Notes under the pieces: generated by a model
The model's input: only the letters and a program-made list of their open reading frames with translations
What the model was told of the DNA's origin: nothing
Databases searched by the model: none
Assembly (NCBI GenBank): GCA_022705905.1
Contig: JAKJDO010000003.1
Span: 14,071-78,070 of the forward strand
Direction of reading: 5' to 3'
DNA: 64,000 bases
DNA from: Patescibacteria group bacterium
Lineage (GTDB): Bacteria; Patescibacteriota; Patescibacteriia; Patescibacteriales; UBA12075
Shown here: in pieces, positions 15,282-61,668 of the stretch
Position numbering within the stretch: position 1 is the stretch's first letter
Layout of the letters: the number at the start of each line of letters is the position of its first letter
Program-made: the position numbers and the translations under genes

Positions 15282-15309
15282 TTGACAAAATAATAATATT
15301 TTATATAAT
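15282..15309 (+). promoter_or_regulatory. sigma70-type promoter of the 15340 mini-gene
   Basis: TTGACA (15282-87), 16-nt spacer, TATAAT (15304-09). AAGGAGG at 15327-33 lies 6 nt before the ATG. Confidence 0.6.
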
Positions 15310-15339
15310 AACGCTATCTTAAATAAAAGGAGGTCATAT

Positions 15340-15543
15340 ATGGCCGGAACTACGAGATCCAGTATCGGCGGTGGCGGAACCAGGGTAACTGATCACTATG
15401 ATGATGGTTCCAGTACGGACAGGGATTACGTCAAGGGCGATTGTGTCGCAATCACCGATCACGACCGGGATGGCAGTAGCCACACCCATGAAGTGAAGCA
15501 CGGGATTCTCGGCACCTACAAAGGAGACATCATCAAGAAGTAG
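15340..15543 (+). CDS. orphan 67-aa Asp/Gly/His-rich protein with internal duplication
   Basis: Perfect SD with its own promoter and terminators, and visibly GC-rich. Repeat VTDHYDDGSS / ITDHDRDGSS. No TM or signal peptide and no recognised family. Confidence 0.5.
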   Translation: MAGTTRSSIGGGGTRVTDHYDDGSSTDRDYVKGDCVAITDHDRDGSSHTHEVKHGILGTYKGDIIKK

Positions 15544-15573
15544 TCTCCTGCTATACCTACGGGTAAAAGCATG

Positions 15574-15637
15574 CCCCCGCTGCTTAAAGCGGGGGTTTAA
15601 TATGAGAAGAGTAAAACGTTTAGGAGACGTTTTTTTT
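15574..15637 (+). terminator. two tandem intrinsic terminators
   Basis: CCCCCGC-N8-GCGGGGG (15574-95), then AAACGT-TTAGGAG-ACGTTT followed by T8 (15614-37). Confidence 0.65.
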
Positions 15638-15774
15638 CGTAACGAGAAATTCGAAAGTTTGATGATGGTACGCGTGGCGGGACAGCTTTCGAACTTTTGA
15701 TTGGGTAACTGCCCTGCCTGTACCTGAGCTAGTATTAAAGGACATTAGGCACCTATGCTCTTTGGTATAAGTCT

Positions 15775-15951
15775 TTATTGATTGCGGGAATTTTTTTTAT
15801 TTTTTACCAGGCCGACAATACCAGTAATAGCCATTATTAATCCCAGTAACTGTCCTCCCGGGCTATCATCATATTCTCCGAATACAAACATAAATATACC
15901 AAGCAATATTAGTATAACAAAGCCTAGTATTTTGAAATATATTTTTTTCAT
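15775..15951 (-). CDS. 58-aa two-TM peptide (last gene of the membrane operon; absent from the ORF track)
   Basis: My own translation: MKKIYFKILGFVILILLGIFMFVFGEYDDSPGGQLLGLIMAITGIVGLVKNKKNSRNQ. It starts 19 nt after the stop of the 866-aa gene. Confidence 0.5.
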   Translation of the reverse strand: MKKIYFKILGFVILILLGIFMFVFGEYDDSPGGQLLGLIMAITGIVGLVKNKKNSRNQ

Positions 15952-15969
15952 ATTTGTTGTTACTTATAA

Positions 15970-18570
15970 TTAATAATTATTTTCTTCAGCGCTTCTATAC
16001 CCTGAATCCGAGAAGCACGCTCCTTTGCCGATCGAAGTCATTACGCTAGCCGGTATTCTTTCTTTATCCATTAACTCGCAAGGCGGACCTTCTTGCCCGA
16101 TATATATAACCCTGTAACTATCTCCTTCTTCTTTAAGAACGGCGGCTGATCCGGCTCTCCGGCCATGCATACCAATCTGGTAAAATGGATCGTCCTGGCT
16201 AATAACAGTTGCGACACTTTCTTTATTTTTCAAATCAAGTGCTTCCAAAAATGGTCTTTGCTTCGCTTGGCTTCCGGCCAAATCATTACCACAGGTTATC
16301 TCAATAGTATTGCACATAAACATATTTTCAGTACAACCGGATGAACCGTAATCCGGATCCACTCTGACCACACACAATTCATCGCCTTTCTCATAGGCTC
16401 TAACATAATCATAAAATTGCCTGTCAGTTTCATTGTCTGATGAGTTTCTTTCATTCAGATTAAATTCTCTAGCGGTCAACACTTCATCCGCAATATTCAA
16501 AACATCACGGGCGAAACTGGTCTCTGCAAAATTATCCGCTCCCGATCCATCGTCTTTGGCAATTTCAATCGATTCTATTCCCGGCACAATAATACTGTAT
16601 CCATCTTCATCATTCCACCACAAAGATGATTCGTCCATTTTACTAATTTCAATCTTCGAAATTGCCGTCTGCAATCTGGCCGACAATTCTTCAGTTATAG
16701 TAGAAGCTACAACTATGCTCTCTGTAATCTCGCCATATTCATCCGCATAAAGAGTGTCATTATAAAAAGAAACATGCAAAATATAATCACCGGCATCAAG
16801 CAAATAATTCACGTCCAATCCTCCGGAAAATCCAAAAACAAACTTTATTAATTTGATTTTATTTCCATTAATTTCCGTGTCTCTTTCTTCGTAATTCGGA
16901 TAGAGTTCTTTATCCTGCGCTTTTTCATGAAAATAATCCATTAATAATTTATACTCATCGCCCTTGGCAACTTTTTTCATTCTGAGCGAGGTGTAAATAA
17001 AGCCCTCGGGATTTTCTCGGTCCGGGTCATCAGGCGCGAATGGAGTTACCACGATATCAAAATTCGGCCCTAAATTTTCTGTCTCAATATAAAAATTATC
17101 AGGATACGAAAATGACAGTTTTAAATCCTTATCAAAATAATTCTTCTTCGAAACTTCTCCAAGAATGCTTTTTAGTATATATCTAAAATCATCTTGTCTA
17201 ATGTTGTGATCCGGCCTCCAAACATAATCAACATCAGTCGGCATTTCCTCGTCGCTAAAAACATCAAAAATCATATAATACGGTAGATTATTATATATTA
17301 TCCGATAACTATCCAGAACAGCGACCTGATGGGCTTTTGTTATTTTAATGTCTTTAGTTTTATAAATATATTCCGGTTTTTGACCGGCATCTTCAAAATC
17401 AAAGTCTTTTCTCATGGAGTTCGTATGCGCATCTTCTAAATACACAAGCAAGTAAACATCATGCTCCTTGTAATCTGTTTTGAAAAACAAACTGTTCGTA
17501 TCATTTATATCAGGAATTATTCCATGAATTTTTTCTTGGCTAAATCGGCCATCCTTTATCAGTTCTGAGTATGTTACACGGGGCATCCATGGGTGCTTGA
17601 TTCTGTTTAAAATTTCCATGGTGCCAGTCTGAGCCTCATGTTGGAGCCTTTGCATATTTGGATTAAGTAGCAGGCGCATTTCATATTCACTGACTTTCTC
17701 AATGTCAGCCGTCCGATATGTCAAACCGAATAAAGTATAGGCGGTGACCTGATAATTTTTTTCATCCATTCCGGTAATTGCCGTTTTTATGATTATTAGC
17801 TTTTCCAGAGGATTATCAAAAAATATCTTGGCCTGCTGTCTGGCATATAAACCTTCCAATGAGGTGGCGCCGGGGACATCAGTTTTTAAGCACTTAGGAA
17901 TATACGCACCGGAATATATGACCAATATCATAGCGCCGATGATTAATAATGCCCTGTTTGCATTCTTAAAGGCATTATCTTTTTTATTGTGACGAATGAT
18001 CCGGTAAGCAGAGTAAAGCCAGAGTATAAAAACAGCCGCCTCCAAATAATGCCTAGTAAGCGGATAATTCATCTTATACATTTCAAAATCAAGCATAATG
18101 TTAGATAAAATATCCGCAATCATTTGTAGAACTAAAACAGTGAATAATAGATACAAAATATTTAAAACCCATGTCTTTGTCCGGTTTGGTTTTGGCTCTG
18201 ACTCTGCTTCGGGAATAGATTTATCGAAACCGAATCTACGGCGCAGTTTGGATATCAGCCAGCCGATGAAATAACCGATAAAATAATATTGCGCGATTCC
18301 GACTATAAAAAGAAAAATAGTTTGGGGCATCAAATCCTCCACGCTACTGGGCAAAATCATTCTAAAAACCGACATTACAACTGTGCCAAAAAGCGGAAGT
18401 AAAATCGAAGATGGCATATGCAAAAACATCATTCCCATCAAACCTTCAGCTAAAGACGAGCCGCCAAAAAACCAGCTTCCTAAAAAGAATATCCAAAAAG
18501 ATAAATCAAGCCCTCCCAATACTAACCCAGTAATAACCGGCAATTTTAAATTTTTTATTTTACTCATCAT
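15970..18570 (-). CDS. large polytopic membrane protein with ~630-aa extracytoplasmic region, unknown function
   Basis: 866 aa. About 7 hydrophobic helices in residues 1-230, then a long soluble region with a Cys-containing C-terminal part. No family recognised. Confidence 0.75.
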   Translation of the reverse strand: MMSKIKNLKLPVITGLVLGGLDLSFWIFFLGSWFFGGSSLAEGLMGMMFLHMPSSILLPLFGTVVMSVFRMILPSSVEDLMPQTIFLFIVGIAQYYFIGYFIGWLISKLRRRFGFDKSIPEAESEPKPNRTKTWVLNILYLLFTVLVLQMIADILSNIMLDFEMYKMNYPLTRHYLEAAVFILWLYSAYRIIRHNKKDNAFKNANRALLIIGAMILVIYSGAYIPKCLKTDVPGATSLEGLYARQQAKIFFDNPLEKLIIIKTAITGMDEKNYQVTAYTLFGLTYRTADIEKVSEYEMRLLLNPNMQRLQHEAQTGTMEILNRIKHPWMPRVTYSELIKDGRFSQEKIHGIIPDINDTNSLFFKTDYKEHDVYLLVYLEDAHTNSMRKDFDFEDAGQKPEYIYKTKDIKITKAHQVAVLDSYRIIYNNLPYYMIFDVFSDEEMPTDVDYVWRPDHNIRQDDFRYILKSILGEVSKKNYFDKDLKLSFSYPDNFYIETENLGPNFDIVVTPFAPDDPDRENPEGFIYTSLRMKKVAKGDEYKLLMDYFHEKAQDKELYPNYEERDTEINGNKIKLIKFVFGFSGGLDVNYLLDAGDYILHVSFYNDTLYADEYGEITESIVVASTITEELSARLQTAISKIEISKMDESSLWWNDEDGYSIIVPGIESIEIAKDDGSGADNFAETSFARDVLNIADEVLTAREFNLNERNSSDNETDRQFYDYVRAYEKGDELCVVRVDPDYGSSGCTENMFMCNTIEITCGNDLAGSQAKQRPFLEALDLKNKESVATVISQDDPFYQIGMHGRRAGSAAVLKEEGDSYRVIYIGQEGPPCELMDKERIPASVMTSIGKGACFSDSGYRSAEENNY

Positions 18571-18576
18571 ATATTT

Positions 18577-21055: not shown

Positions 21056-21057
21056 AT

Positions 21058-23709: not shown

Positions 23710-23893
23710 AAACATTAATTTTCGAATTTTATAATTTCCAATTTCCAAAACGAATATGAAAAGTAAAAAATAAAGCCTTCGCGAGAAAGCTAAGTTTAAT
23801 ATAAACTAAAATTATAAAAATGTCAATATTTGATTGTTAAAGCAATAAAGGCTACTATAAAAATAGTAAATAGTAAAAGTCGAGGAGGGCGCC

Positions 23894-24133
23894 ATGAATG
23901 GTACAGTTAAATATTTTGTGCTCATTGAGTCATGCGATCCTATTTTCCCGGTGCTGGCTTCTTTGTTTTTAGGAGATGATCATTCTTTGCCGTGTTTTGA
24001 ATATGAGATCGGCACACCAACTTCTGAATTTAATTCAAAACAGTATCTTCGGGAAATATCTAAGTACCGTCAAGTTGTCGGGGTGGTCGGCGAGACAAAT
24101 AACATTCCGATCAACTTGATGATCATGCGCTAG
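23894..24133 (+). CDS. orphan 79-aa protein
   Basis: GAGGAGGG at 23882-89, 4 nt before the ATG. Strong hairpin terminator directly after the stop. No family recognised. Confidence 0.45.
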   Translation: MNGTVKYFVLIESCDPIFPVLASLFLGDDHSLPCFEYEIGTPTSEFNSKQYLREISKYRQVVGVVGETNNIPINLMIMR

Positions 24134-24146
24134 CTCGCTGCTTTTC

Positions 24147-24174
24147 GAAGGTTCGTTGTTTCTAACGAACCTTC
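24147..24174. terminator. bidirectional intrinsic terminator
   Basis: GAAGGTTCGTT-GTTTCT-AACGAACCTTC, an 11-bp perfect stem between convergent genes. Confidence 0.7.
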
Positions 24175-24176
24175 AT

Positions 24177-25283
24177 TTATTTTAAAGTAATCGCCACAAT
24201 TTCTGGAGTATTGCCAATTCGAATCGGCGGGCCCCAAGTGCCAGCGCCATTAGAAGTATAACTAGTATAATTATTTTCGACATGCAATCCGTTGTGATAT
24301 CGTTTATAAATCAGCCAAGTAAAAAATTGAAAAGGAAATTGTTGACCGCGATGAGTATGCCCAGCTAGTTGTAAATCTATGCCCGCCGCTTTTGCTAATT
24401 CAGTGTATCGCGGTTCATGATGCAGAAAAATATTAGCTTCTTCCGGTTTTACTCTTTTCATTAACTCCGCCACGCCTTGTTTATTTCCAAGATCGCTAGT
24501 AAAATCAGCGCCAATAATATTTAAGCCATTGATGTTTGCTATTTCATCCTTTAAAATTTTAACGCCCGCCTCTTGCAAGGCTTGATCGGCCCCTCGCTCA
24601 CCGATATAAGATTCATGATTGCCGTTAATAAATAATACCCCATACTTGCTGTCAATGCTTTTTAACGGATCTGTTAGCGAATTATATTCAGACAAAGAGC
24701 CGTCAAAGTAATCTCCGCCGATTAAAATTAATTCAGGCTCGACTAAATTTATTTGCTTAACAATTTTTTTTATGAAGGGAGTTCGATTAACTGCTCCCAA
24801 ATGAATATCTGAAACAAAAACAATTTTTTTATTTTGCCATTGCGACGGCAAATTTTTTATATTCACAACAATATTTTTTAGCCGTGGATTTTGCGCGTTC
24901 CATATCCCATAGGTAGAAATGGCGATAGTAGCAACAAATAATACTGACAATATAGTTTTAAAATCCAAATTTATACCAAAATATTTTACAAAGAAATAAA
25001 AAAGCCAGCAAATGATACTGGCTAAAAATAAATTAACTAAAAAGCCATGCCAAGTGGACACGGTGATATAAAGCCAGCGAATCAGAAGCGCGTTGGAGGC
25101 ATGCGCTAGTAGCATACTTGCAAGCAAAGAGAGGGAGAGGATAATAGTTGTGGTGAGTAAAATTATTCTAGTTTGAGAATTGGTGATATTAAAAAATTTT
25201 ACTATGGTATAGTAAACTAAATAATGCCCGCCGAATATTACGGAAAGAAATATTAGTAAGATGGGAATAAAAATTAAGCGCAT
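24177..25283 (-). CDS. membrane-anchored metallophosphoesterase (calcineurin-like)
   Basis: 368 aa. About 4 N-terminal TM helices, then SDIHLG, GGDYFDG, NGNHE and GHTHRGQ motifs. Confidence 0.85.
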   Translation of the reverse strand: MRLIFIPILLIFLSVIFGGHYLVYYTIVKFFNITNSQTRIILLTTTIILSLSLLASMLLAHASNALLIRWLYITVSTWHGFLVNLFLASIICWLFYFFVKYFGINLDFKTILSVLFVATIAISTYGIWNAQNPRLKNIVVNIKNLPSQWQNKKIVFVSDIHLGAVNRTPFIKKIVKQINLVEPELILIGGDYFDGSLSEYNSLTDPLKSIDSKYGVLFINGNHESYIGERGADQALQEAGVKILKDEIANINGLNIIGADFTSDLGNKQGVAELMKRVKPEEANIFLHHEPRYTELAKAAGIDLQLAGHTHRGQQFPFQFFTWLIYKRYHNGLHVENNYTSYTSNGAGTWGPPIRIGNTPEIVAITLK

Positions 25284-33024: not shown

Positions 33025-33029
33025 AAGTT

Positions 33030-37631: not shown

Positions 37632-37661
37632 GTTCATTATCAAAAGACAAGGAGGCCGATC

Positions 37662-38183
37662 ATGGCAAAAAAGGATAGACCGACTATTTGCACGGTTTGT
37701 TATGTTGTTGAGTTTAAGAAAAAGATGATTCTTTTAGGCCATAAGCGAAAAAGGCAAAATAGCAAAAGCTTGGGGGTAGGCAAATGGAATGGCCATGGTG
37801 GTCACTGGAAAGACAGCGAAACGATCGAAGCTACGGTCGCCAGGGAGCTGCTTGAAGAAAGCGGGTTGATTGTCCATTCAATGGAGAAGCGTGGCATTGC
37901 GCTGGCGAAAAATGAAGCCAAAAATACCCTGATAGAATTGCACATTTTTTTCGTTCATGATTATGACGGCGAATTGCTTTTGCAGACAGACGAGATGATA
38001 AACCAATGGTTCACGATCGACGAGATCCCTTACGACCAGATGTGGGCGAGCGACCAGATTTTACTGCCCTTGTTCTTTGCCGGCAAACAAGTTGCCGGTT
38101 GGTTCCACTATTATGACGACAACCATTTGATTTGGCACAAAATTGAGGAAGTGGTTCTCTTGCCAAATTCTATCGAGTGGTAA
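37662..38183 (+). CDS. NUDIX hydrolase
   Basis: 173 aa. Nudix box GGHWKDSETIEATVARELLEESGL. It is one of the AAGGAGG-led (37649-55), visibly GC-richer genes. Confidence 0.85.
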   Translation: MAKKDRPTICTVCYVVEFKKKMILLGHKRKRQNSKSLGVGKWNGHGGHWKDSETIEATVARELLEESGLIVHSMEKRGIALAKNEAKNTLIELHIFFVHDYDGELLLQTDEMINQWFTIDEIPYDQMWASDQILLPLFFAGKQVAGWFHYYDDNHLIWHKIEEVVLLPNSIEW

Positions 38184-39839: not shown

Positions 39840-39868
39840 TTGATTTTTTTGTTTTTGTGTGGTATAAT
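39840..39868 (+). promoter_or_regulatory. sigma70-type promoter with extended -10
   Basis: TTGATT (39840-45), 17-nt spacer, TGgTATAAT (39860-68). Confidence 0.6.
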
Positions 39869-39902
39869 TATATTATAAATGTTCTTCGAAGGAGGATGCG
39901 CC

Positions 39903-40115
39903 ATGTGTATTGATACCAAAAAAACATTTGGCATTGTCCTTACTCCAGAACAAGAGGAAAGAGTAACTCTTTTTGAGCAAGTATGCGATGAAGAATTGCC
40001 GGATATGGATCCGCAAACGAGGCGAGACGCCATTTTCGTCTTCATAAAAACGCATATACATCACGAGAATGTCTTTCCTTGGCTGGAAAAATCACTGGAG
40101 GCAGGACTCCGATGA
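39903..40115 (+). CDS. orphan ~70-aa acidic protein
   Basis: AAGGAGG at 39889-95, 7 nt before ATG 39903. The track ORF opens at 39879 in the same frame. Own promoter and terminator. No family recognised. Confidence 0.45.
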   Translation: MCIDTKKTFGIVLTPEQEERVTLFEQVCDEELPDMDPQTRRDAIFVFIKTHIHHENVFPWLEKSLEAGLR

Positions 40116-40157
40116 AATGTTGCTCTTATGCTTTATTGAGGGCAACATTTTCTTTTG
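40115..40157 (+). terminator. intrinsic terminator
   Basis: AAATGTTGC ... GCAACATTT stem followed by TCTTTTG. Confidence 0.6.
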
Positions 40158-40972: not shown

Positions 40973-41044
40973 TTTTGCCAGGATAGAAAAATATATTTAT
41001 CCACTTAAAATTTTCAGAAAGCATGATATATTATAGTTAAGCTG

Positions 41045-41317
41045 TGAATATTTAATGAAAGGAGGGTGGCGCTTTTGGTCGCAACTTGTAGAAGAAGTCT
41101 ATCAGGCAACGACAAAGCAGCAGTTGAAAGGAGGACGGCCATGGCCAAGCTTCTCAAGATTCCGAAACAGAGCCTTTCGGGCTCCACAGGCGTTCTTTCT
41201 CCGTTATTTGCGAAAACGGCTTCGTCCGGAAGGAGGTGATCCAGCGCAGGAATTCTGAGCGCAGTGAGCTCGGATAGTTTGTAGATTGACCGGAGACTTT
41301 TTGTCTCCGGATTTTTT
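41045..41317 (+). other. GC-rich self-contained transcription unit with three AAGGAGG motifs (coding status unresolved)
   Basis: Extended -10 (TGaTATATT, about 41024-32). AAGGAGG at 41059, 41128 and 41230. Possible 32-aa ORF 41141-41239 (MAKLLKIPKQSLSGSTGVLSPLFAKTASSGRR) or the 67-aa track ORF 41055-41258 in another frame. Terminator CCGGAGAC-TTTTT-GTCTCCGG plus T-run (41290-41317). Confidence 0.4.
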
Positions 41318-41381
41318 ATTTTTAAGTTTTTGTTGTATAATAATAAAAGTAAATAATATATTTTTAGCAGACCTCACCCCA

Positions 41382-41406
41382 TCCCTCTCCTTTTGAAGGA
41401 GAGGGA
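41382..41406. repeat. TCCCTCTCCTT-TTG-AAGGAGAGGGA hairpin
   Basis: Perfect 11-bp stem, 24 nt upstream of the smc start. Same CCCTC..GAGGG type as 60879-95 and 60984-61001. Confidence 0.55.
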
Positions 41407-44452: not shown

Positions 44453-44586
44453 AAGCGAGATGTTTTAAATTTGTTAAAATACAATTTTTAATTACCGATT
44501 GCCCGGGAGTGGTGAAATAAATAATTAAAACAAGGGCCCGTTGTTGATTGGGCCCCCTTGGGGAGTCTTGCCGATAGAGACAGTTT

Positions 44587-45066
44587 TTATTCGCTTTTAG
44601 CTTTATATATTCCCGTCATCATTTGCCATTGCGCTGATAAGTCGGCAAATGGCAGTTTATCTTTCCGTAATCCCGATCTGATATTTACCGAATTTATTTT
44701 GATTATTTTAACCCCCTTGACGTTGCTGTCTATTCGTGTGTAGTAGCCGTCAATAGGCAGCTGCTGGATACGAGGAAGTATCAGGTCCGCAAACCTCAGC
44801 ACATCTTTTGCTCCCGTGCAAACATCAATTTCTCCCCAAACAGAAAAGATAGTTATGGTCGGACTGTGCAGCAGGGAATTAAAGACAATCCAAACCCCAT
44901 CATTGAGCTGGAGGCTGCTTTTTTTGGGGACGGGTTCGTTCTTTATGAAAGGTAAATTATTTTTCCCGAACCAGACCGCTAATTTTTCGAAGATCTTGAA
45001 TAATGACTGCACGATAATAAAGAGCGAGAATTCTTCAACACTAAATTCTGTTGTATCATGTTTCAT
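44587..45066 (-). CDS. orphan 159-aa protein
   Basis: AAGGAGG (complement of 45073-79) 6 nt before ATG 45066. TTGACC-17-TAAGAT promoter (45127-32 / 45104-09). GGGCCC-stem terminator at about 44530-44560. The track ORF extends to 45090. No family recognised. Confidence 0.5.
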   Translation of the reverse strand: MKHDTTEFSVEEFSLFIIVQSLFKIFEKLAVWFGKNNLPFIKNEPVPKKSSLQLNDGVWIVFNSLLHSPTITIFSVWGEIDVCTGAKDVLRFADLILPRIQQLPIDGYYTRIDSNVKGVKIIKINSVNIRSGLRKDKLPFADLSAQWQMMTGIYKAKSE

Positions 45067-45155
45067 GATATTCCTCCTTAGTCTATTCAATTTTTAGTAT
45101 TTCATCTTAATACATATATCTTTTTAGGTCAATAACGTAATAAAAATAAAAAATT

Positions 45156-47885
45156 ATGACAAAACGAGGAGGAGTAAAGATTGTCTTATGCCTAATTGGT
45201 TTAGGACTTTTTATTTTGGCGCCGAATAAGTTAGTTGCTGTTGGCGAACATTTAATAATTAACGAAGTGCAAATAAATGGCGCGGGCGGCACGCAGGAGG
45301 ATTTTATAGAACTATATAATCCGACCAGCGAGCCGATTAATTTAAAAGGCTATCGACTAGTAAAAAGAACCAAAGTTGGTACGTCGGATACTTCGATTAA
45401 ATCGTGGACCGGCGACGAATATGTTGCCGCTGGCGGCTATTATCTTTGGGCCAACAGCGCTAATGGTTTTGCTGATAGTATCGGCGCCGATGTCTTTACA
45501 ACCCAAACAATTGCTGCGGATAATGGCATAGCTTTGCGTTTTGGCAAAGAAAACGAAGGTGAGATTATTGATAGCGTCGGTTGGGGAGCCTGTGCTAACA
45601 TTTTTGTTGAAAACAGCGTTTTTCCTAACAATCCTGAAGCCGGGCAGAGCCTGGAAAGAAACAACTTCATTGATACAGACAATAACGCTAATGATTTTTT
45701 AATCAATCTTTCGCCTTCGCCGCAGAGTTCTCTCGGCAGTGCCGATCAGCCGAGCGAATCATTTTGCGGAGACGGCCAAAAAGATGAAGATGAAGAATGC
45801 GACGACGGTAATAGCAATAATGGCGATGGCTGCGATTCAGCCTGCGTGGTAGAAAAAAATGGTGAACCGACTGATACAAGCTTTGCATCTTCAACCTCGA
45901 CAATCCCAGCAGATTCTCAAGCAAGCTTTCGCTGGGGTGAAGTCGTCATTAACGAATTTGTGGCCGATCCTAGCGACAATGACACCGAATGGATTGAAAT
46001 TTTTAACGCAAGCTATAAAGAAATTGATCTGTCTGATTGGTTGATTGAAGACGGTAGCGGCGCCAAAACGAAATTGTCAGGCAAGCTAGGAACCAGCGGA
46101 GATAGCAGGTTTTTTGTTATTAATAAGCCAGCGGGCAGCCTTAATAATGCCGGGGATTTAATTATTTTAAAATATAAAGACGGAATTATTGATAAAGTAG
46201 CTTATGGCAATTGGGACGAGGGAGACAAAGATAATAATGCCCCAACCTCCCGCGATCCTTATGCGGTTGCGCGCCGAGCAGACGGCTATAACACCGGTAA
46301 TAGTAAAAATGATTTTGCTATAACGACAACTTTGACTAAGGGTAAAAGCAATATTATCACCATCAGCGCCGAAGACGAAAATAAAAGCCAGGACAGTGGT
46401 TGTGGTTTGCAACAAGATGTTTTTATATCAGAAATTTTTCCCAATCCAATTGGGGCGACTGATGATCAGGAAGAATTTATCGAACTGTATAATCAAAGTA
46501 GCAGTGACATAAATTTGTTTGGTTGGAGTTTGGGAGACAACAGTAAAAAAAGATATGAATTTAAGTCAGGAGCTATAATAGGAGCTGGTTCTTTTTTGGC
46601 GGTTTACAGACCGGAGAGCGGTTTGTCATTAAATAATGACGAGGATACAGTCAAGCTTTTTAAACCTGACTGTGAAGAAACAAGCGAAGCAGTGAAATAT
46701 AGCGGAGTCAAAGAAGGCTGGAGTTATAATAATGCCAAATATGCGTCGAGTAGTATTAATGTAAAAAACAAATGGGTTTGGAGCGACAAGGTGACGCCTG
46801 GTCAGTCCAATGATATGCCGGTAACCAATGAGCCGCCGGAAGTGGCTTTTGACGCTCCGGCTGAAGTTGAAGCTGGGAGCCCGGTATTTTTTGACAGCTC
46901 TGACACGACTGACGAAAGCACTAGCAGTTTAAAATATTTTTGGGATTTTGCCGACGGCGCTACCAGCACTTTAGCTAATCCGGAGCATACATTTTTTAAA
47001 ACTGGCTCGTTTAAAATTAAGTTAACGGTTTCCGACGGCAAGAACGAAGCTAGCAAAATAAAAACAATAAAAGTGGTTAAAAAAGGCAGTGTGGTTGTAA
47101 AAGGAACCAGCACAGACAGTGCCAAAGCAGCAGCTTCTAAAACAGCCACCACAAAAAAGGCAGCTAGCAACATAAAAATTATAAATTTAGACAAAGTAAA
47201 AGAAATGGCCAAGGGCGATAGAGTTAAGGTTGAAGGTGCCGTAGCCATTTTGCCAAACATTTTTAGTTCTCAGTATTTCTATATCGTTGGTTCGGGTGGC
47301 GTTCAAGTTTATAGTTATAAAAAAGACTTTCCGGAATTAAAAGTTGGCGATATAGTTTCAGTCACTGGTGAAATTTCGATTGTCAGCGGCGAGAAAAGAA
47401 TAAAAACCAACACTAAAGACGATATCAAAATCATAAAAAACGAAAAAGAACCAGAACCGGAAGTTTTAAGCTGTGAGAATATTGATGAAGAAAGCGTCGG
47501 TCATTTAGTGTCAGTTGTTGGTGAAGTGACCGAAAAAAAAGGTTATACTATTTTTTTGGACGACGGTACCGACGAAGCGCAAGTTTATTTAAAGAAAAAT
47601 ACGGGATTAAGCAATAGCGATTTTACCGAAGGCGACAAAATAGAAGTGCGCGGAATTGTCGGCCAAAGCGGAACGAATTTAAGAATTATGCCACGCAGCA
47701 AAGATGATTTAATAAGGCAAAACGATGAGGCCGGTGAAGTTTTGGGCGAGGTATCACAAAGCGATGGGTGGCAATTAGCACAAAGAGATAAAAAAATGGA
47801 ATTACTAAAATATTTTTTAGCTATAGCGGTTTTTATTATTTTAGGTTTAGTCATATTTATTTTCAAAAAATTGACAAATAAATGA
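45156..47885 (+). CDS. surface protein: 3 lamin-tail domains, Cys-rich repeat, PKD domain, OB-fold-like module, C-terminal TM anchor
   Basis: 909 aa. LTD signatures (INEV..G....EFIELYN, three times), CGDG..DEECDDGN..NGDGC repeat, PKD (YFWDFADG..HTF...G...I.LTV.D), OB-like VKVEG.V.....QYFYI.., and a terminal hydrophobic helix with a KK tail. Confidence 0.8.
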   Translation: MTKRGGVKIVLCLIGLGLFILAPNKLVAVGEHLIINEVQINGAGGTQEDFIELYNPTSEPINLKGYRLVKRTKVGTSDTSIKSWTGDEYVAAGGYYLWANSANGFADSIGADVFTTQTIAADNGIALRFGKENEGEIIDSVGWGACANIFVENSVFPNNPEAGQSLERNNFIDTDNNANDFLINLSPSPQSSLGSADQPSESFCGDGQKDEDEECDDGNSNNGDGCDSACVVEKNGEPTDTSFASSTSTIPADSQASFRWGEVVINEFVADPSDNDTEWIEIFNASYKEIDLSDWLIEDGSGAKTKLSGKLGTSGDSRFFVINKPAGSLNNAGDLIILKYKDGIIDKVAYGNWDEGDKDNNAPTSRDPYAVARRADGYNTGNSKNDFAITTTLTKGKSNIITISAEDENKSQDSGCGLQQDVFISEIFPNPIGATDDQEEFIELYNQSSSDINLFGWSLGDNSKKRYEFKSGAIIGAGSFLAVYRPESGLSLNNDEDTVKLFKPDCEETSEAVKYSGVKEGWSYNNAKYASSSINVKNKWVWSDKVTPGQSNDMPVTNEPPEVAFDAPAEVEAGSPVFFDSSDTTDESTSSLKYFWDFADGATSTLANPEHTFFKTGSFKIKLTVSDGKNEASKIKTIKVVKKGSVVVKGTSTDSAKAAASKTATTKKAASNIKIINLDKVKEMAKGDRVKVEGAVAILPNIFSSQYFYIVGSGGVQVYSYKKDFPELKVGDIVSVTGEISIVSGEKRIKTNTKDDIKIIKNEKEPEPEVLSCENIDEESVGHLVSVVGEVTEKKGYTIFLDDGTDEAQVYLKKNTGLSNSDFTEGDKIEVRGIVGQSGTNLRIMPRSKDDLIRQNDEAGEVLGEVSQSDGWQLAQRDKKMELLKYFLAIAVFIILGLVIFIFKKLTNK

Positions 47886-47940
47886 TCTGACGTTATTGTG
47901 TAATTACAATAAAACATCCTTGAAAGGAGGAACAATCAGA

Positions 47941-48240
47941 ATGTTGCCGAGAGGTTGTTTAATATCCGTACCAGGAATTCACAAATTGATCCACGACCTT
48001 GATGGTTTAATATGGTTGTTTCAGGAGCGTTCTTACGAATATCTTTTGGACTTGCACAAGTATCCCCACTCCTGCATCGATCAGTATGGGGAAAAGAGCG
48101 ATGTTTTTAACGGCAGGCCCAGAAGGGGCGAAAATGGAGGACAGCCAACTCCGACTTTTGGAGATTGGCTTCAAGTAAGCGGCTTATTAGAGCTCGTAAG
48201 TGAGTTTAATACAAGGAAGGAGTCGGTGGGGATCAGGTGA
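47941..48240 (+). CDS. orphan 99-aa protein
   Basis: TTGACA (47871-76, inside the end of the LTD gene), 17-nt spacer, TATTGT. AAGGAGG at 47924-30. Terminator GGGGATC-AGGT-GATCCCC overlaps the TGA stop. The track ORF opens at 47896. Confidence 0.45.
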   Translation: MLPRGCLISVPGIHKLIHDLDGLIWLFQERSYEYLLDLHKYPHSCIDQYGEKSDVFNGRPRRGENGGQPTPTFGDWLQVSGLLELVSEFNTRKESVGIR

Positions 48241-48318
48241 TCCCCCTTTTTCTTTATTTACTTTTGGAATTATATTATAATTAGTGTATAAAGTTACTTT
48301 AAGTAATGAATATTTTTT

Positions 48319-50955
48319 ATGGCTTTTGGCAAAAAAAAGTTTAAGTTTAGAAGAAGGCGTAGCGCTCTAGATTATATTGCCTTACCGCATTTACCCGAGT
48401 TTGATCTTGATCCAGAAACGAAAAGGGGCATTTGGGTGATAGTGTTAATTGCTTTGGGCGCAATTGGTGCTCTGGGCTTGTTTGATATGGCTGGCGATCT
48501 AGGTCGCTATTTGAACAAAGGCCTATCTTTAGGCTTTGGTTGGGGCAGGTTTTTTATTCCATTTTTAATCATGATTTTAGGCTATCTTATTTATAATCAG
48601 GAGCTAGAAATAAAAAAGAGCAATTATTTTGGCTTGCTCATTTTTGTTTTTTCGTTGCAAGCTTTGTTAATGATATCTATTAATATTGATAGTTGGGAGA
48701 CTAGTTTGTCAGAAGGAAAGGGGGGCGGTTATATTGGTTGGTTGCTAGCTAATAGCTTAATGAAAGGCGCTGGCTTTTGGGGAACTATAATTTTAATTTT
48801 TAGCTTGTTAATTATTTCAATTTTATTGTTATTTAATACTGGTTTAGCTCGTATTTTTGGTAAAGAAAGCGCTATCGGAAAAATAATGACACCAGTTAGC
48901 GCTGTTTTAGGTTGGTTTACAGAATGGCGTAAACGCCGTCAGGAGCTAGCCGATAAAGAGGAAGAGGAGGAAGAAGAAGACGATGAGGACGACAAAGACG
49001 AGGAAGAGGAGGAAGAAGAAGACGATGAGGACGACAAAGACGAGGAAGAGGAGGAAGAAGAAGACGATGAGGACGATGATGATAAGACAGACAAAGAAGA
49101 CTTGGAACAAAAGAAGCTGCCAATCTTTAAAATAGAAGAAATAAAAAACGGCGGTGAACAATTTTGGTGGCAAGAGCCAACTAATATTAGAATAAGTTTG
49201 CCTTTGGGCTTGCTAGACGGTAAGAAAGAAAAGCCGACCAGCGGTGATATAAAAGAATACCAGGAAATAATCAAGAGAACTTTAGAAAATTTTGGTATTC
49301 CAGTAGAAATGGGAGAAGTGACTGTTGGTCCTACCGTAACGCAATATACTTTAAAACCGGCTGAGGGTGTGAAATTATCACGTATCACAACCTTAAGTAA
49401 TGATTTGGCTTTGGCTTTGGCGGCGCATCCAATTAGAATTGAAGCGCCGATTCCGGGCAAAAGATTGGTCGGTGTAGAAGTGCCTAACCAGAAAAAAGCT
49501 ATGGTATCGCTTAAGGAAGTTTTACTGTCTAAAAATTATGTTAACCGCAAATCTAACAATATGGTTGCTTTAGGTAAGGACGTGGCGGGTACAGTTTGGC
49601 TGGATGATATTTCCAAGATGCCTCATTTATTGGTGGCTGGCGCGACTAATTCCGGTAAATCAGTTTGTTTAAATTCAATTATTGTCAGCTTATTATATCA
49701 AAATAGTCCGGATGAGTTGCGGTTCATTATGGTTGATCCGAAACGCGTTGAAATGCAGGTTTACAATAATATTCCGTATTTGCTGACGCCGGTAATCACT
49801 GATGCTAAGAATACGATTATTGCTTTGAAGTGGTGTCTCGTAGAGATGGAAAAACGTTTTGATCTTTTGTCAAAAGCCGGTCATCGCAATATTCAGACTT
49901 ATAACGCTTCCGTCAAAATAAAAATGCCTTATATAGTTTTTATTATTGACGAGTTGGCTGATTTGATGGTGGCCGCAGCCAAGGACGTTGAAGCTGGGGT
50001 TATCCGTTTGGCGCAGATGGCGCGCGCGGTTGGAATACATTTGGTTTTGGCTACACAGCGTCCTAGCGTTGATATTATTACCGGTTTAATTAAATCCAAT
50101 ATGCCGGCGCGCATTGCATTCTCCGTGGCTTCCGGAACTGATTCACGCACGATTATTGACACGATGGGCGCTGAAAAATTATTAGGACGCGGCGATATGC
50201 TATATATTAATGCCGAGATGTCTAAACCAGTTAGGTTGCAAGGAGCGTTTTTAAGCGACGATGAAATTCGGCGAGTGGTTAGGTATATAAAAGAAAAAGG
50301 CGGCCCCGCCCAATATTTAGAAGATGTAACTAACAAGCAAAAAGTCGGCGGTTTGAGTGGCAACGGTTTTGGCGATGACGGTGAAGGCGACGATCTCTAC
50401 GAAGAAGCTAAAGAAATTGTTATTAATCAGGGTAAAGCTTCAGCTTCGTTTTTGCAAAGAAAATTTAGCATCGGCTATAATCGAGCCGCTCGTCTGATAG
50501 ACATAATGGAGCAGATGGGCGTAGTCGGTCCTGCCAACGGCTCGAAGCCGCGTGAAATTTTAATTAGCCGCGAACAATATGAAGCGACAATAACGACTGG
50601 TGTCAGCGGCGTGGCTTTGCATAGCCGCGAAGAGGCAGAGGCGCCGGATGAATTTTTAAATAGTTTAGGTGAAGAAGCAGAAGTGCCGCCGGTTTTAGTT
50701 AGAAAAAAAATTGATGATGATATTGATTGGGAAGGAGAGGAAATTACTGTCGGTGAAGAAGAAGGCGACGAAAACGAAGACGAGGCTGAAACAGAAGAAG
50801 AAATAGAAGAAGAGGCAAGGTCAGAGCTTACAGAAAGAAAAGCCAGAAAAGAAATAAAAAAAGCCAGAAAAATTGAAGTTACTAAAAACGACGACGATCC
50901 ATCATATGACATAGTCAAAGAAGAAGATGACGATGGTCGATACTTTTCGCGTTAA
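48319..50955 (+). CDS. ftsK: DNA translocase FtsK/SpoIIIE
   Basis: 878 aa. 4-5 N-terminal TM helices, motor domain with AGATNSGKS Walker A and IIDELADL Walker B, gamma winged helix (ASASFLQRKFSIGYNRAARLID), plus an acidic linker and a ~140-aa acidic C-terminal tail. Confidence 0.92.
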   Translation: MAFGKKKFKFRRRRSALDYIALPHLPEFDLDPETKRGIWVIVLIALGAIGALGLFDMAGDLGRYLNKGLSLGFGWGRFFIPFLIMILGYLIYNQELEIKKSNYFGLLIFVFSLQALLMISINIDSWETSLSEGKGGGYIGWLLANSLMKGAGFWGTIILIFSLLIISILLLFNTGLARIFGKESAIGKIMTPVSAVLGWFTEWRKRRQELADKEEEEEEEDDEDDKDEEEEEEEDDEDDKDEEEEEEEDDEDDDDKTDKEDLEQKKLPIFKIEEIKNGGEQFWWQEPTNIRISLPLGLLDGKKEKPTSGDIKEYQEIIKRTLENFGIPVEMGEVTVGPTVTQYTLKPAEGVKLSRITTLSNDLALALAAHPIRIEAPIPGKRLVGVEVPNQKKAMVSLKEVLLSKNYVNRKSNNMVALGKDVAGTVWLDDISKMPHLLVAGATNSGKSVCLNSIIVSLLYQNSPDELRFIMVDPKRVEMQVYNNIPYLLTPVITDAKNTIIALKWCLVEMEKRFDLLSKAGHRNIQTYNASVKIKMPYIVFIIDELADLMVAAAKDVEAGVIRLAQMARAVGIHLVLATQRPSVDIITGLIKSNMPARIAFSVASGTDSRTIIDTMGAEKLLGRGDMLYINAEMSKPVRLQGAFLSDDEIRRVVRYIKEKGGPAQYLEDVTNKQKVGGLSGNGFGDDGEGDDLYEEAKEIVINQGKASASFLQRKFSIGYNRAARLIDIMEQMGVVGPANGSKPREILISREQYEATITTGVSGVALHSREEAEAPDEFLNSLGEEAEVPPVLVRKKIDDDIDWEGEEITVGEEEGDENEDEAETEEEIEEEARSELTERKARKEIKKARKIEVTKNDDDPSYDIVKEEDDDGRYFSR
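48958..49083 (+). repeat. 42-bp tandem repeat, ~2.8 copies, inside ftsK
   Basis: GAGGAAGAGGAGGAAGAAGAAGACGATGAGGACGACAAAGAC is identical at 48958-48999 and 49000-49041. The third copy diverges at its end. It encodes EEEEEEEDDEDDKD. Confidence 0.9.
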
Positions 50956-57188: not shown

Positions 57189-57312
57189 TAGAATGTAAAA
57201 AAATAATACCGCTTTTATTAAACCTCTGAAGTAGCGGCCAGAGGACTTGCCTGCGGGCGGGTTAAACTAGGCTTTTTTTATTAGTAAAAAAGTTTAGCTT
57301 GAAGATAATATT

Positions 57313-58578: not shown

Positions 58579-58603
58579 ACTCACATATTACGTAACACGT
58601 AAC

Positions 58604-58631
58604 AAAACGAGCGGTTTTATCCGCTCGTTTT
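58604..58631. terminator. bidirectional intrinsic terminator
   Basis: AAAACGAGCGG-TTTTAT-CCGCTCGTTTT. Confidence 0.75.
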
Positions 58632-58815
58632 GGTTTCAAAATGTTTATGATTGTTATTGATGCTATGAACTAAAGTGTTTGAGACAAAAGCGTCTATTTT
58701 CTCTAGGCTTCTCATGGCATAGGTATTTATCATGAGTCTAAAGTCTGATTTTTTAGCACATGACCGCCTCCTTTATAATTTTTTAAAGTATATTCCCTGG
58801 ACATTAATATGTCAA
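58617..58815 (-). other. promoter + AAGGAGG + two-codon ORF (ATG TGC TAA) unit; possible sRNA or leader
   Basis: On the minus strand: TTGACA (58815-10), 17-nt spacer, TATACT (58792-87), AAGGAGG (58773-67), ATG at 58761 followed by TGC TAA. A 38-aa ORF (58733-58617, no SD) runs into the shared terminator. Confidence 0.35.
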
Positions 58816-58927
58816 ATGAAAAATATTAGGCTAAAATGGCTGTAAAAAATGGTCTAACAGCTGTTGCCAAATGCGCCATAATATTATATACTACCATTTA
58901 TGCTAACAATTAAAATTATTTTTTAAT

Positions 58928-60865
58928 ATGAAAAATTTAATAAAAAATTTTTTAATCTTTTTTGTCTTTTTTTTGGTTATTGCGGCAGTTTTTAGCGGTC
59001 TGGTTAACAAAGCCGAACAAGCAGAAAAAGTCGGTATAGAAACTTTAATTAGCCGTATAAATGAAGAACAGGTTGAGAGCATAACTATCAACGGTGCAGA
59101 AATGCAAGTGGCTTTAAAGGACGGCGCTAAAGAGGTAGTTAAAAAGGAGGCCGGGCAGACTTATTCAGAGCTTTTGGCTAATTACGGCGTTGATAAAGAT
59201 AAGATGGTTAAAGTTAAAGTCGAGGTAATTGAAGATCAGGGCTGGAATTTTTGGCTGACGACTATCCTGCCTTTTCTGCTGCCATTTTTGTTGATTGGCG
59301 CTTTTATTTATTTTATGATGCGCAGCGTCCAGGGGGCCAATTCCAAGGCTTTGATGTTTGGACAATCGCAGGCCAAAGAGTTTAATCAGGAAAATAAAAA
59401 TAAAGTGTCTTTTAAAGACGTAGCTGGCGCCAAGGAAGCTAAGGAAGAATTGGCAGAAGTGGTAGAATTTTTAAGAACGCCGAAAAAATTTCAGGAATTA
59501 GGCGCGCGTATTCCGCGCGGCGTTTTGCTTTTGGGCAGTCCGGGCACCGGCAAGACTTTGCTAGCGCGGGCGGTAGCTGGCGAAGCTAATGTCCCCTTTT
59601 TCCATATTTCAGGTTCGGAATTTGTTGAGATGTTTGTCGGTGTTGGCGCTTCGCGCGTCCGCGATTTATTTAAAAAAGCCAAAAAGAATGCTCCCTGTAT
59701 TGTTTTTATTGATGAAATTGACGCCGTTGGTCGTAAGCGCGGCGCCGGACTGGGTGGGTCGCATGATGAGCGCGAGCAGACTTTAAACCAGATCCTAGTC
59801 GAGATGGACGGTTTTGATCAAAATACTAATATTATTGTTATGGCGGCAACGAATCGTCCGGATGTTTTAGATCCAGCGCTTTTACGTCCGGGACGTTTTG
59901 ACCGTCAGGTAGTACTTGAAAATCCGGACATTAAAGATCGTGAAGAAATCTTAAAAGTGCATGCCAAGAAAAAACCGTTGGCAAAAGATGTTAGCTTACG
60001 TCGCGTGGCTGAACGTACACCTGGATTCTCCGGTGCTGATTTAGCTAACGTTTTAAACGAGGGCGCGATTTTGGCCGCTCGCCAAAATAAAAAGATTATT
60101 GAAATGCCCGATTTATTTGAAGCGATTGAAAAAGTCATGCTGGGTCCGGAGCGTAAGAGCCGCGTTTTATCTGAGCGCGAAAAAGAAATTACCGCTTATC
60201 ATGAAGCCGGGCACGCTATCGTGGCTCACTTTTTGCATCATATGGATCCGGTGCAGAAAATTTCGATTATCGCCCGCGGCCAGGCTGGCGGTTATACGAT
60301 AAAATTACCGACCGAAGATAAGCATATGTTTACTAAAACCGAGTATATTGAAGAGATCGCGGTGCTACTCGCCGGCTATTTAACTGAAAAAGAAAAGTAC
60401 GGCGAAGTAACAACCGGCGCTACCTCTGATTTGCGCCGCGCCACTTCGATTGCCCGCCGTTTAGTGACGGACTTCGGCATGTCCGATGGTCTTGGCCTGC
60501 GTACTTACGGCGAAAAAGAAGAGCTTATTTTCTTAGGACGAGAAATTCACGAGCAGCGCGATTATAGCGAAAAAGTCGCCGAACAAATTGATAATGAAAT
60601 TTCCGCTTTTATTGAAAAAGCGACTAAGGAAGCGGAAAAAGTAATTAAAGATAAAAAAGAAATTTTAGAAAAAGTAGTGGCTGAATTGTTAGTTAAAGAA
60701 ACTTTAGAGAAGGAAGAATTCGAAGCGATTGTTGGAGAAAAGGATGGTAAAAAAGTTTTACCAAAAAAAAACGAAGAAGGGCAGGAAAAATTTTCCGCAG
60801 AAGAGGTAACTACAAATGAAAAATCAACTGAGACCGAAATTGTATTAGACAAAGAAGACAAATAA
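58928..60865 (+). CDS. ftsH: ATP-dependent zinc metalloprotease FtsH
   Basis: 645 aa. Two TM helices, GSPGTGKT Walker [13 protein letters not shown] region, HEAGHA zinc motif. It has a K/E-rich C-terminal extension. Confidence 0.95.
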
Positions 60866-60878
60866 TATTTTTATAATT

Positions 60879-61001
60879 CCCCTCCTAGGGAGGGGTTGGG
60901 CCTGCCCGCAATGCTTCGCTTGCGAGGCGAGGCGGGGGTAGGTTTATTTTTTCTAACACACCCCGCTCCGCAAATGCGGAGCGCCCCTCTAAATAGAGGG
61001 G
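60879..61001. repeat. cluster of four consecutive GC-rich hairpins
   Basis: CCCCTCC-TA-GGGAGGGG (60879-95). GCTTCGC-TT-GCGAGGC nested in CCCGC..GCGGG (60905-36). CGCTCCGC-AAAT-GCGGAGCG (60964-83). CCCCTCTA-AA-TAGAGGGG (60984-61001). Confidence 0.7.
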
Positions 61002-61038
61002 AATAAAAAAGATCTCGCGTGAAGTGGGATTTTTTTGT

Positions 61039-61076
61039 AAAAAAAAGGGGGCGAGCGTTTTTGGATTGCTCGCCCC
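61039..61076 (-). terminator. intrinsic terminator of the 61105-61539 gene
   Basis: GGGGCGAGC-N11-GCTCGCCCC, followed on the minus strand by T8. Confidence 0.7.
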
Positions 61077-61104
61077 AAGAGGAGGTAACTTGTTTGGGCG
61101 GTTT

Positions 61105-61539
61105 TTAGGCCGCTTTATTTTCGGTTTCAGCGAGTCTGCCGAAGAATTCGTGAGCCTTGATAGCTCCCTTCGGCAACACTGACAGCACCTGTCCCGGCGA
61201 ATATGTTTCGTGGGGCACCAGGTAATCCAGAATCGGCAGGGTCTTTATCTCCTTGGTCACGATATCTAAATAATCGCTTCCAAGGTGAATCAGAGTCTTG
61301 CCGGCGGCAGGCCCATGATAAAAGTTAACCGGCTTCTCTACGATGGTCAGCATAAAACGCCTGACCTTGAGATGTTTTGATAGTACTCCAGCTTCCTGCT
61401 GGAGTCCATTCTGGCTGAGTTCATCAGCCAGAGTCTTTATCTCTTCAGTTGAGACCTTCAGCAAGTCTCGGTCGATCATTTTATTATAGGCTCTGAGTTG
61501 TTCCTTGGCTCCTCGTTGTTCCGTAGTTTGAATGTGCAT
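61105..61539 (-). CDS. orphan 144-aa protein
   Basis: Visibly GC-richer ORF. TTGACA-17-TATGCT promoter (61619-14 / 61596-91), weak SD (AAGGGG), own terminator. No family recognised. Confidence 0.55.
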   Translation of the reverse strand: MHIQTTEQRGAKEQLRAYNKMIDRDLLKVSTEEIKTLADELSQNGLQQEAGVLSKHLKVRRFMLTIVEKPVNFYHGPAAGKTLIHLGSDYLDIVTKEIKTLPILDYLVPHETYSPGQVLSVLPKGAIKAHEFFGRLAETENKAA

Positions 61540-61668
61540 GACTAGTTTTCCCCTTTTTATTGTAGTTTTTTGTTAAAATACAGCTTCGTTAGCATATCAT
61601 TAAATAATTTTTTTGTCAAGTCTTGAGCGATTTTTGTAAATACAGTATGATAACTTACGACTATTAAT

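Follow-up and report, generated by a model that had tools for sequence, protein, structure and literature searches.

How does a bacterium whose genes mostly begin without a Shine-Dalgarno (SD) sequence come to carry a minority of small genes that begin with a nearly perfect one, and what are these genes? The question is raised by a 64-kb stretch with 37% G+C from a chromosome of the Parcubacteria, in the Candidate Phyla Radiation (CPR, or Patescibacteria); the whole stretch is referred to as the window. Contigs 99.1-100% identical to it are found in many anaerobic-digester metagenomes, and its FtsK shares 98% identity with a protein of ‘Parcubacteria group bacterium ADurb.Bin316’, likewise from anaerobic digesters. 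The core genes of the window are ppsA, tsaD, comM, a PAS/CHASE kinase cluster, ruvC, two glycogen synthases and the genes for SMC, FtsK, GyrA, S1 and FtsH. An SD-like motif (AAGGAGG, GAGGAGG or AAGGGG) stands before nine other starts, those of eight open reading frames (ORFs) and of one two-codon mini-ORF. CPR bacteria constitute a large share of bacterial diversity, and their gene expression is almost unstudied experimentally.

Comparison of these starts with the core genes and with relatives of the organism reveals a two-class pattern that is real, statistically solid and lineage-wide. The explanation favored here, which we hold to be probable while leaving ample room for doubt, is that two start-site architectures co-exist and that the SD class is made up of a handful of ordinary genes alongside numerous short orphans that turn over quickly in conserved promoter-SD slots.

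Two classes of start site

The motif AAGGAGG occurs 13 times in the window against 5.4 ± 2.1 expected, a count reached in none of 100 shuffles, and at 8 of the 13 sites an ATG lies 5-10 nucleotides (nt) downstream, where the background probability is 0.08 (binomial P = 1.7e-6). Four other sites (25565 on the minus strand, 42837, 51174 and 59144) fall within core genes, about the number expected by chance. The spacing of about 5-10 nt, above chance, and the complementarity through the GGAGG core at nine starts (-8 to -13 kcal/mol) are those of canonical SD-led initiation. An earlier note on this DNA had placed AAGGAGG at such a distance before an ATG at a series of loci, which holds at 15327, 37649, 39889, 41128, 45073 (minus strand), 47924 and 58767 (minus strand) but fails at 41059, where a TTG follows, and at 41230, where there is no start codon. 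GAGGAGG at 23882 and AAGGGG before 61539 (61550-61555, minus strand) lie where the note had put them.

Pairing was scored as the duplex energy of the 20 nt before each start with CACCUCCUUU, an anti-SD sequence that was not read from the organism's own 16S rRNA. The energies are bimodal. The SD-led ORFs (n = 8; starts 15340, 23894, 37662, 39903, 41075/41141, 45066 on the minus strand, 47941, and 61539 on the minus strand) range from -8.0 to -13.0 kcal/mol with a mean of -11.5, while the core ORFs of at least 100 amino acids (aa) average -0.6 kcal/mol (n = 49) behind A/U-rich leaders without an SD, as had been claimed for the remaining starts. Two core outliers proved to be artefacts, one a palindrome before SMC and the other a motif 19 nt from its start. 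The genes for S6, S18, SSB, EF-P, RecA and YchF, which lie just outside the window in the same organism, also lack an SD. The idea that the SD marks highly expressed housekeeping genes was rejected, given the SD-less genes for S1, S6, S18, EF-P, SSB and RecA.

The two classes also differ in the base directly before the start codon. Position -1 is U in 36 of the 41 ATG-started core genes used for base positions (88%) but in only one of nine SD-led genes (Fisher p = 2e-5), seven of which have C; examples of U(-1) are the core starts at 1918, 3512, 3740, 5941, 48319 and 52603. Core leaders (n = 41) hold at most 10% G at each position from -17 to -1, with A peaking at -5 (0.71) and -10 (0.68) and reaching only 0.49 at -3. 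The U(-1) preference fits, in our reading of the literature, an extended UAUG pairing to A37 of the initiator tRNA and would constitute a second, independent initiation signal. The spacers that follow the SD are G+C-rich (gcgcc is seen twice), and folding around the start is stronger in SD-led than in core genes (-8.0 vs -4.6 kcal/mol, p = 0.0045). The SD class differs from the core in three independent start-site features.

Composition and family content

As a class, the SD-led genes are richer in G+C than the core (0.458 vs 0.370, Mann-Whitney p = 1e-6), also at third codon positions (GC3, 0.50 vs 0.345). Taken one by one, only 15340, the 41-kb unit, 61539 and 47941 stand out from core coding sequence cut into pieces of matching size. 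Codon usage is shifted in all codon classes, with enrichment of G-ending Lys, Glu and Gln codons, AGG, CTG and CTC, and the shift looks compositional rather than the product of simple selection for optimal codons.

By our own count from the Pfam listings, about 40 of the 51 core genes have a Pfam family but only one of eight SD-led genes does (p = 6e-4). The exception encodes a NUDIX hydrolase; as had been noted beforehand, the others belong to no recognizable family, with no assignment in Pfam, NCBIfam, PHROG, PADLOC or PDB sequence searches. The orphan that starts at 45066 retrieved only itself among 5.8 billion proteins. The other orphans were searched for homologs in family, phage and IMG/VR libraries only: a tblastn of the concatenated orphans against 50,697 phage records and IMG/VR scans of three orphans gave no match. 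Within these libraries, no homolog elsewhere points to a donor lineage. Atypical composition and patchy distribution, the marks of a recently transferred genomic island, are both found for the orphans, with the vertically inherited NUDIX gene as the exception.

The SD-led units

The units and their parts, in window coordinates, are as follows.

15282..15600, plus strand: SD-led unit 1, with TTGACA (15282-87), a 16-nt spacer, TATAAT (15304-09) and AAGGAGG (15327-33)
15340-15543, plus strand: ORF of unit 1, 67 aa, GC 0.53, GC3 0.62, no family; terminator hairpin at 15574-95
23820..24185, plus strand: SD-led unit 2, with promoter-like TTGATT...TACTAT, GAGGAGG (23882-88) and spacer gcgcc
23894-24133, plus strand: ORF of unit 2, 79 aa, GC 0.40; terminator at about 24146-74
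37649..38183, plus strand: SD-led NUDIX hydrolase gene, with AAGGAGG (37649-55) and ORF 37662-38183, 173 aa, GC 0.44, GC3 0.55
39840..40151, plus strand: SD-led unit 3, with TTGATT, a 17-nt spacer and TG-TATAAT (39840-68), and AAGGAGG (39889-95)
39903-40115, plus strand: ORF of unit 3, 70 aa; terminator at 40114-51
41005..41318, plus strand: SD-led unit 4, possibly an RNA, with promoter (41005-34), a first SD (41059-65) followed by a TTG-started ORF (41075-41239, 54 aa), a second SD (41128-34) followed by an in-frame ATG (41141), a hairpin (41254-74) and a terminator (41290-41318)
41230-50, plus strand: AAGGAGGTGATCCAGCGCAGG, complement of the 16S 3' end, overlapping the stop codon of the small ORF of unit 4
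44526..45132, minus strand: SD-led unit 5, with TTGACC, a 17-nt spacer and TAAGAT (45132-45104), and AAGGAGG (45079-73)
45066-44587, minus strand: ORF of unit 5, 159 aa; terminator at about 44556-26
47871..48255, plus strand: SD-led unit 6, with TTGACA, a 17-nt spacer and TATTGT (47871-99), and AAGGAGG (47924-30)
47941-48240, plus strand: ORF of unit 6, 99 aa, GC 0.46; terminator at 48228-45
58601..58815, minus strand: SD and mini-ORF unit, with TTGACA (58815-10), a 17-nt spacer, TATACT (58792-87) and AAGGAGG (58773-67)
58761-53, minus strand: mini-ORF ATG TGC TAA, two codons, ahead of a structured, A+T-rich stretch of RNA of about 120 nt; terminator at 58630-01
61035..61619, minus strand: SD-led unit 7, with a weaker SD; TTGACA (61619-14), a 17-nt spacer, TATGCT and AAGGGG (61555-50)
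61539-61105, minus strand: ORF of unit 7, 144 aa, GC 0.48; terminator at 61076-35

With the exception of NUDIX, the units possess a near-consensus promoter and a terminator formed by a hairpin and a run of T, in keeping with the claim that each locus is monocistronic with signals of its own. NUDIX departs from this description: it starts 30 nt past the stop codon of a DUF2238 gene, the promoter scan gave no promoter of its own, and it is probably co-transcribed with that gene. The GC-rich palindromic elements said to adjoin several units look like ordinary terminator and leader hairpins, and no repeat family links the units.

The locus at 58767 (minus strand), also listed as SD-led, does carry a perfect AAGGAGG before an ATG, but only ATG-TGC-TAA follows. 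Its A+T-rich transcript of about 190 nt is predicted to be structured (fold z = -4.5), with the start codon within a stem, and the unit may represent a small RNA, a gene in decay or an element of the start-stop type. Rfam searches at permissive thresholds over 15.1-16.0, 39.6-41.5 and 58.6-58.9 kb returned only noise, with nothing near gathering scores. A single-sequence AF2 model of the 61539 product was poor (pLDDT 54).

Conservation and turnover among relatives

The relatives, which span a range of distances, are L015 and L020 (SMC 85% identical at the amino acid level), L029 and L022 (FtsK 78% and 73%), L021 and L027 (SMC 77%), an outgroup to the window and L015, L010 and L011 (about 55%) and the distant L013; the window is sister to L015. 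In all relatives the core genes lack an SD, yet each carries a few SD-led genes, which are again G+C-richer (+0.059, p = 0.002) and whose proteins lack a Pfam family in 9 of 10 cases. The U(-1) bias recurs in the SD-less genes of most relatives (e.g. L011, L017, L023, L025).

The NUDIX ortholog in L027 (48% amino acid identity) is syntenic, before glgA2, and carries aaaAAGGAGGacattcgcaATG, while all its neighbors are SD-less. Among non-self NUDIX relatives with 49% identity or less, the best match is this ortholog from the clade itself. Synteny and identity together show a vertically inherited gene that has retained its perfect SD.

A different history emerges at 39.9 kb, where neither the promoter hexamers (-35 and -10) nor AAGGAGGA vary between the window, L015 and L021. 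The small ORFs of L015 and L021 are homologous (none of 500 sequence shuffles reached the alignment score), while the window ORF is unrelated to them (p about 0.2), as is its terminator, and the DNA alignment breaks directly after the SD. Since the window is sister to L015, it was the window lineage that replaced its ORF while promoter and SD stayed in place. The 45.1-kb slot, upstream of the LTD gene, contains an SD-led minus-strand gene with divergent transcription in the window as well as in L029 and L021, and the window and L029 share the non-consensus hexamers TTGACC/TAAGAT. The three proteins (159 aa in the window, 294 in L029 and 176 in L021) showed no similarity in a BLASTP of window against L029 and a tblastn of both against L021. 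By alignment, at least two units can thus be shown to be conserved ‘expression slots’, in which promoter and SD are fixed and the ORF has been replaced or has diverged past recognition.

Occupancy varies elsewhere as well. Between LTD and FtsK, the window has a single SD-led orphan, L020 has two others, L021 a gene without an SD and L029 no gene at all; L021 also has an inserted SD-led beta-CASP gene. For the 15340 slot, the relatives that carry the CHASE gene gave no syntenic region, their contigs being too short or not syntenic. The window orphans are absent from L010, L011, L015 and L020-L022, and L029 was compared against slot neighbors only. The earlier note had named vertical conservation of the orphans as a finding that would speak against its interpretation; the orphans are indeed absent from relatives, but NUDIX is vertical and two promoter-SD modules are kept across the clade.

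The SD is therefore invariant at orthologous starts with diverged flanks in three cases, NUDIX (L027), 39.9 kb (L015, L021) and 45.1 kb (L029, L021), and the intergenic DNA around the conserved SDs is otherwise unalignable among lineages. Such conservation at orthologs and slots indicates that the SD is under purifying selection.

SD-led genes can also occur in series. At 13412-16261 (minus strand) of L010, four consecutive SD-led genes form an island rather than a single unit. None of them has a Pfam family, at least three of the four have signal-peptide-like N-termini, and two have a G+C of 0.46-0.48 in a 35% G+C locus.

The 41-kb unit

Unit 4 stands apart, as it carries AAGGAGGTGATCCAGCGCAGG, which is complementary to the 3' terminus of bacterial 16S rRNA at 21 of 22 nt and has 16 nt identical to the universal 1541R primer region. 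The counterpart in L015 (9818-9838) reads GGGGGTGATCCAGCCCAGG; in L021 it is absent, and a scan of viral contigs for the motif gave no match. Between the window and L015, the promoter, the first SD and the 3' ~100 nt of the unit are conserved, the last comprising the 16S-tail complement, the terminator and a hairpin in which the changes preserve pairing. The encoded peptide is not conserved (p = 0.5), and the AGGAGG motifs fall on in-frame Arg-Arg codons in both species. A fold z of -0.7 indicates that the transcript is not a globally structured RNA. The possibility that the motif is a minus-strand fragment of a 16S pseudogene was rejected: similarity ends after 21 nt, helix 45 is missing and the terminator points to the plus strand. 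The pattern of conservation suggests an RNA-level role involving the 16S tail, in a comparison of two sequences that gives no statistical power.

The favored explanation

Among the readings put forward in the earlier note, an SD-dependent class is the best supported, co-regulation aside, given SDs conserved on orthologs and slots and three differing start-site features. In the scheme that we favor, class I comprises about 90% of genes, including those for S1, S6, S18, EF-P, RecA, GyrA, FtsH, FtsK and SMC, and is defined by a nearly G-free leader, no SD and U at -1. Its mRNAs would bind the 30S subunit through unstructured A/U-rich RNA (in an S1-type manner) and extended UAUG pairing with the anticodon loop of the initiator tRNA. 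Class II, about 10% of genes, is characterized by a near-perfect extended SD (AAGGAGG) at 5-10 nt from the start codon. Its spacers are G+C-richer, position -1 is usually C and the start region is more structured, and its mRNAs would be recruited by classical pairing to the 16S 3' tail. The lineage would therefore have to keep this tail exposed and functional.

Class II genes are mostly short, family-less and G+C-richer, with atypical codons, and form, NUDIX excepted, self-contained promoter-SD-ORF-terminator units between conserved core genes. For ORFs that are compositionally foreign or young and more structured, the SD may be what permits translation where resident genes use another signal. 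ORF turnover would probably proceed by recombination within the flexible gene pool of the lineage and not by a dedicated mobile element.

Several points weigh against this explanation. The data covered the 64-kb window and a further 20 kb of the same genome, with about 150 kb from relatives, and gene starts were taken from a simple longest-ORF caller. The 16S 3' end of the organism was not found in the window, in the 20-kb flanks or in any clade locus, and Tsurumaki et al. (2022, PMC9297842) detected the CCTCCT motif in only 48% of Parcubacteria 16S sequences. The units were described as each G+C-richer than their flanks, which is true of the class, but 23894, 39903 and 45066 (GC 0.40-0.42) are not individual outliers. 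Nine near-identical contigs at strain level have zero single-nucleotide polymorphisms (SNPs) in the SD-led ORFs and are hence uninformative for the ratio of nonsynonymous to synonymous substitution (dN/dS). The orphans are translated genes by prediction, and the idea that the SD compensates for G+C-richer, structured starts agrees with the folding and codon data as a correlation only.

The anti-SD itself was deduced from the conservation of the SD. The 16S of L017 is cut off at model position 1434, and the tail is intact (GGATCACCTCCTTTCT) in L013, a distant relative that is likewise SD-less. SDs conserved on orthologs and slots amid unalignable DNA imply a working SD/anti-SD interaction in the clade, and SD pairing is thus most likely functional in this lineage.

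If this explanation is correct, the anti-SD would still work in one clade of Parcubacteria at least, although its loss has been reported in the group, and the clade would lend itself to the study of why SD pairing persists in SD-poor lineages. The SD would also serve as a genomic marker for flexible and orphan genes, aiding annotation and start-codon correction in metagenome-assembled genomes of CPR bacteria, and would single out small, strongly signaled orphans as candidates for lineage-specific, possibly host-interaction, functions.

Alternative explanations

A more elaborate proposal, which we consider rather unlikely, gives the slots a purpose. The lineage would keep promoter-SD landing pads between core genes into which unrelated small ORFs are exchanged, and the SD would be a separate channel for flexible or young genes. 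The 41-kb transcript, with three SD motifs and one 13-21-nt 16S-tail complement, might tune this channel by binding free 30S tails.

The SD motifs may instead be passive baggage of recent horizontal gene transfer (HGT), an account to which we attach low probability. G+C-richer genes would have arrived with the ribosome-binding sites of SD-using donors, whether the host or other members of the community, and the motifs would be functionless in a lineage whose anti-SD may be lost. Such an origin agrees with codon usage that is atypical in all classes (GC3 about 0.51 vs 0.35; AGG, CTG and CTC up), with the G+C-rich spacers after the SD, with orphans absent from relatives and an SD-led beta-CASP gene inserted in L021, and with an anti-SD motif reported missing from about half of the Parcubacteria 16S sequences (PMC9297842). 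It does not predict an SD that is invariant at orthologous positions across three lineages with otherwise unalignable intergenic DNA, nor a NUDIX gene that is vertical yet has a perfect SD. The promoters of the units are, moreover, of the A+T-rich sigma-70, resident type, and no donor homolog was found for the 45066 orphan among 5.8e9 proteins, nor for the orphans in phage and IMG/VR data. Recent HGT accounts for composition and patchiness, not for SD conservation or the missing donors. The acquisition from a GC-richer host suggested beforehand thus retains the codon shift, the patchiness and the ORF replacement in its favor, while the absent donor homolog and the vertical descent of NUDIX and of two promoter-SD modules speak against it.

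It is also conceivable, if doubtful, that the SD class is a conditionally translated regulon of the kind known in Bacteroidia, where most ribosomes ignore the SD and a sub-population with an exposed 16S tail, bS21-less or stressed, switches SD-led genes on together. The same architecture exists in Flavobacteria, with an SD-free genome, a retained anti-SD and a strong SD on a special gene (PMC7797042, PMC9976891, PMC13000453). The intact GGATCACCTCCTTTCT tail of L013 is in line with this, and the 41-kb transcript, whose 16S-tail complement is conserved in L015, could titrate free tails. However, about 10% of genes are SD-led here rather than one, none of them is rpsU, and no regulatory motif beyond consensus promoter elements is common to the units. 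Parcubacteria, moreover, often lack bS21, and the tail would then be free at all times.

Small mobile cassettes, also proposed in the earlier note, would be integron-like, moron-like or miniature elements that bring a promoter, SD and terminator with them when they insert. Such a nature of the units is very improbable: they are self-contained, of deviant composition, formally like phage morons, and variable in slot occupancy among relatives, but no repeat family, direct or inverted repeats, attC-like site or target duplication was found to link them, the Pfam listings of the region contain no integrase, transposase or phage genes near them, the orphans have no PHROG or phage matches, and in two slots promoter and SD belong to the conserved backbone and not to the variable part.

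Other features of the region

The palindrome before SMC is a leader hairpin at 41376-41406, CCCTCTCC-TTTTGAA-GGAGAGGG, and the SD-like signal to which it gives rise, about 30 nt ahead of the start of SMC, is spurious. The corresponding hairpin of L015 (about 9940-9975) reads CCCTCCCT-TTCGAAA-AGGGAGGG, both stem changes being compensated. Part of ftsK (48940-49110) is an imperfect tandem repeat that codes for an acidic linker rich in Glu and Asp (GAGGAAGAGGAGGAAGAAGAAGACGATGAGGACGAC...) and explains several internal GGAGG motifs of this gene. The FtsK of L029 contains a similar tandem repeat.

The window additionally encodes two tRNAs and one DUF3800-IX RNA (Rfam RF02968, 57 bits; 62793-62861, minus strand), which directly follows two DUF3800 ORFs and also occurs at 10415-10483 of L026. 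Just beyond the window, after these ORFs and the RNA, lies a restriction-modification-like cluster (EcoRI methylase, GmrSD/HNH). In L010, positions 6400-6760 (minus strand) hold three tandem copies of about 180 nt, each opening with a tRNA 3'-end-like sequence (TTCGAATCCTGCTGGGCGCACAAAATAAA...) and adjoining three tRNA genes; the copies look like repeated integration scars.

Variation between strains is patchy. In one strain, L005, the Zip gene (window 32985-33770) carries 101 SNPs and several insertions or deletions, and two extra small genes (DUF5320-like and DUF134) are found between PHP and Zip, while most other genes are identical. By their distribution, these differences look like recombination patches.

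Comparison with known systems

Phage morons and replacement-type flexible genomic islands are autonomous promoter-gene-terminator units of deviant composition, and unrelated genes can occupy the same slot in related genomes. The units described here resemble them in being autonomous and deviant, in lying between conserved genes and in the sharing of slots by unrelated genes across relatives. They differ in being chromosomal, non-phage, single small genes, of which in two slots only ORF and terminator vary. As for prophage cargo, the orphans have no PHROG family, a search of 50,697 phage records gave no match, and neither did IMG/VR for the three orphans scanned there; as for integron cassettes, neither shared recombination sites nor a cognate recombinase was found in the region.

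The organism belongs to the same phylum-level group as those surveyed by Tsurumaki et al. (2022, PMC9297842), much of which is implied to initiate without SD pairing, as the core genes do here. That study concerns 16S sequences rather than mRNA starts, and its available text does not describe a two-class gene set.

A further close parallel is found in Bacteroidia. Flavobacterium johnsoniae has an SD-free genome in which the anti-SD is sequestered by bS21, bS18 and bS6, with a strong SD on rpsU and in prfB (PMC6847099, PMC7797042, PMC9976891, PMC13000453). S6 and S18 genes are present in the organism studied here. In contrast to Bacteroidia, about nine SD-led starts occur in 64 kb (about 10% of genes), they belong to orphans and NUDIX, and none encodes bS21, so that the SD is not confined to rpsU. 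The strongest leader signals here are U(-1) and A at -5 and -10, against A at -3, -6 and -12/-13 in Bacteroidia. The likeness lies in core genes without an SD behind A-rich, unstructured leaders with position-specific signals, in a minority that keeps a strong extended SD, and in an anti-SD kept by one distant SD-less relative, L013. The pattern belongs among the known SD-poor translation regimes and is not a new kind of system.

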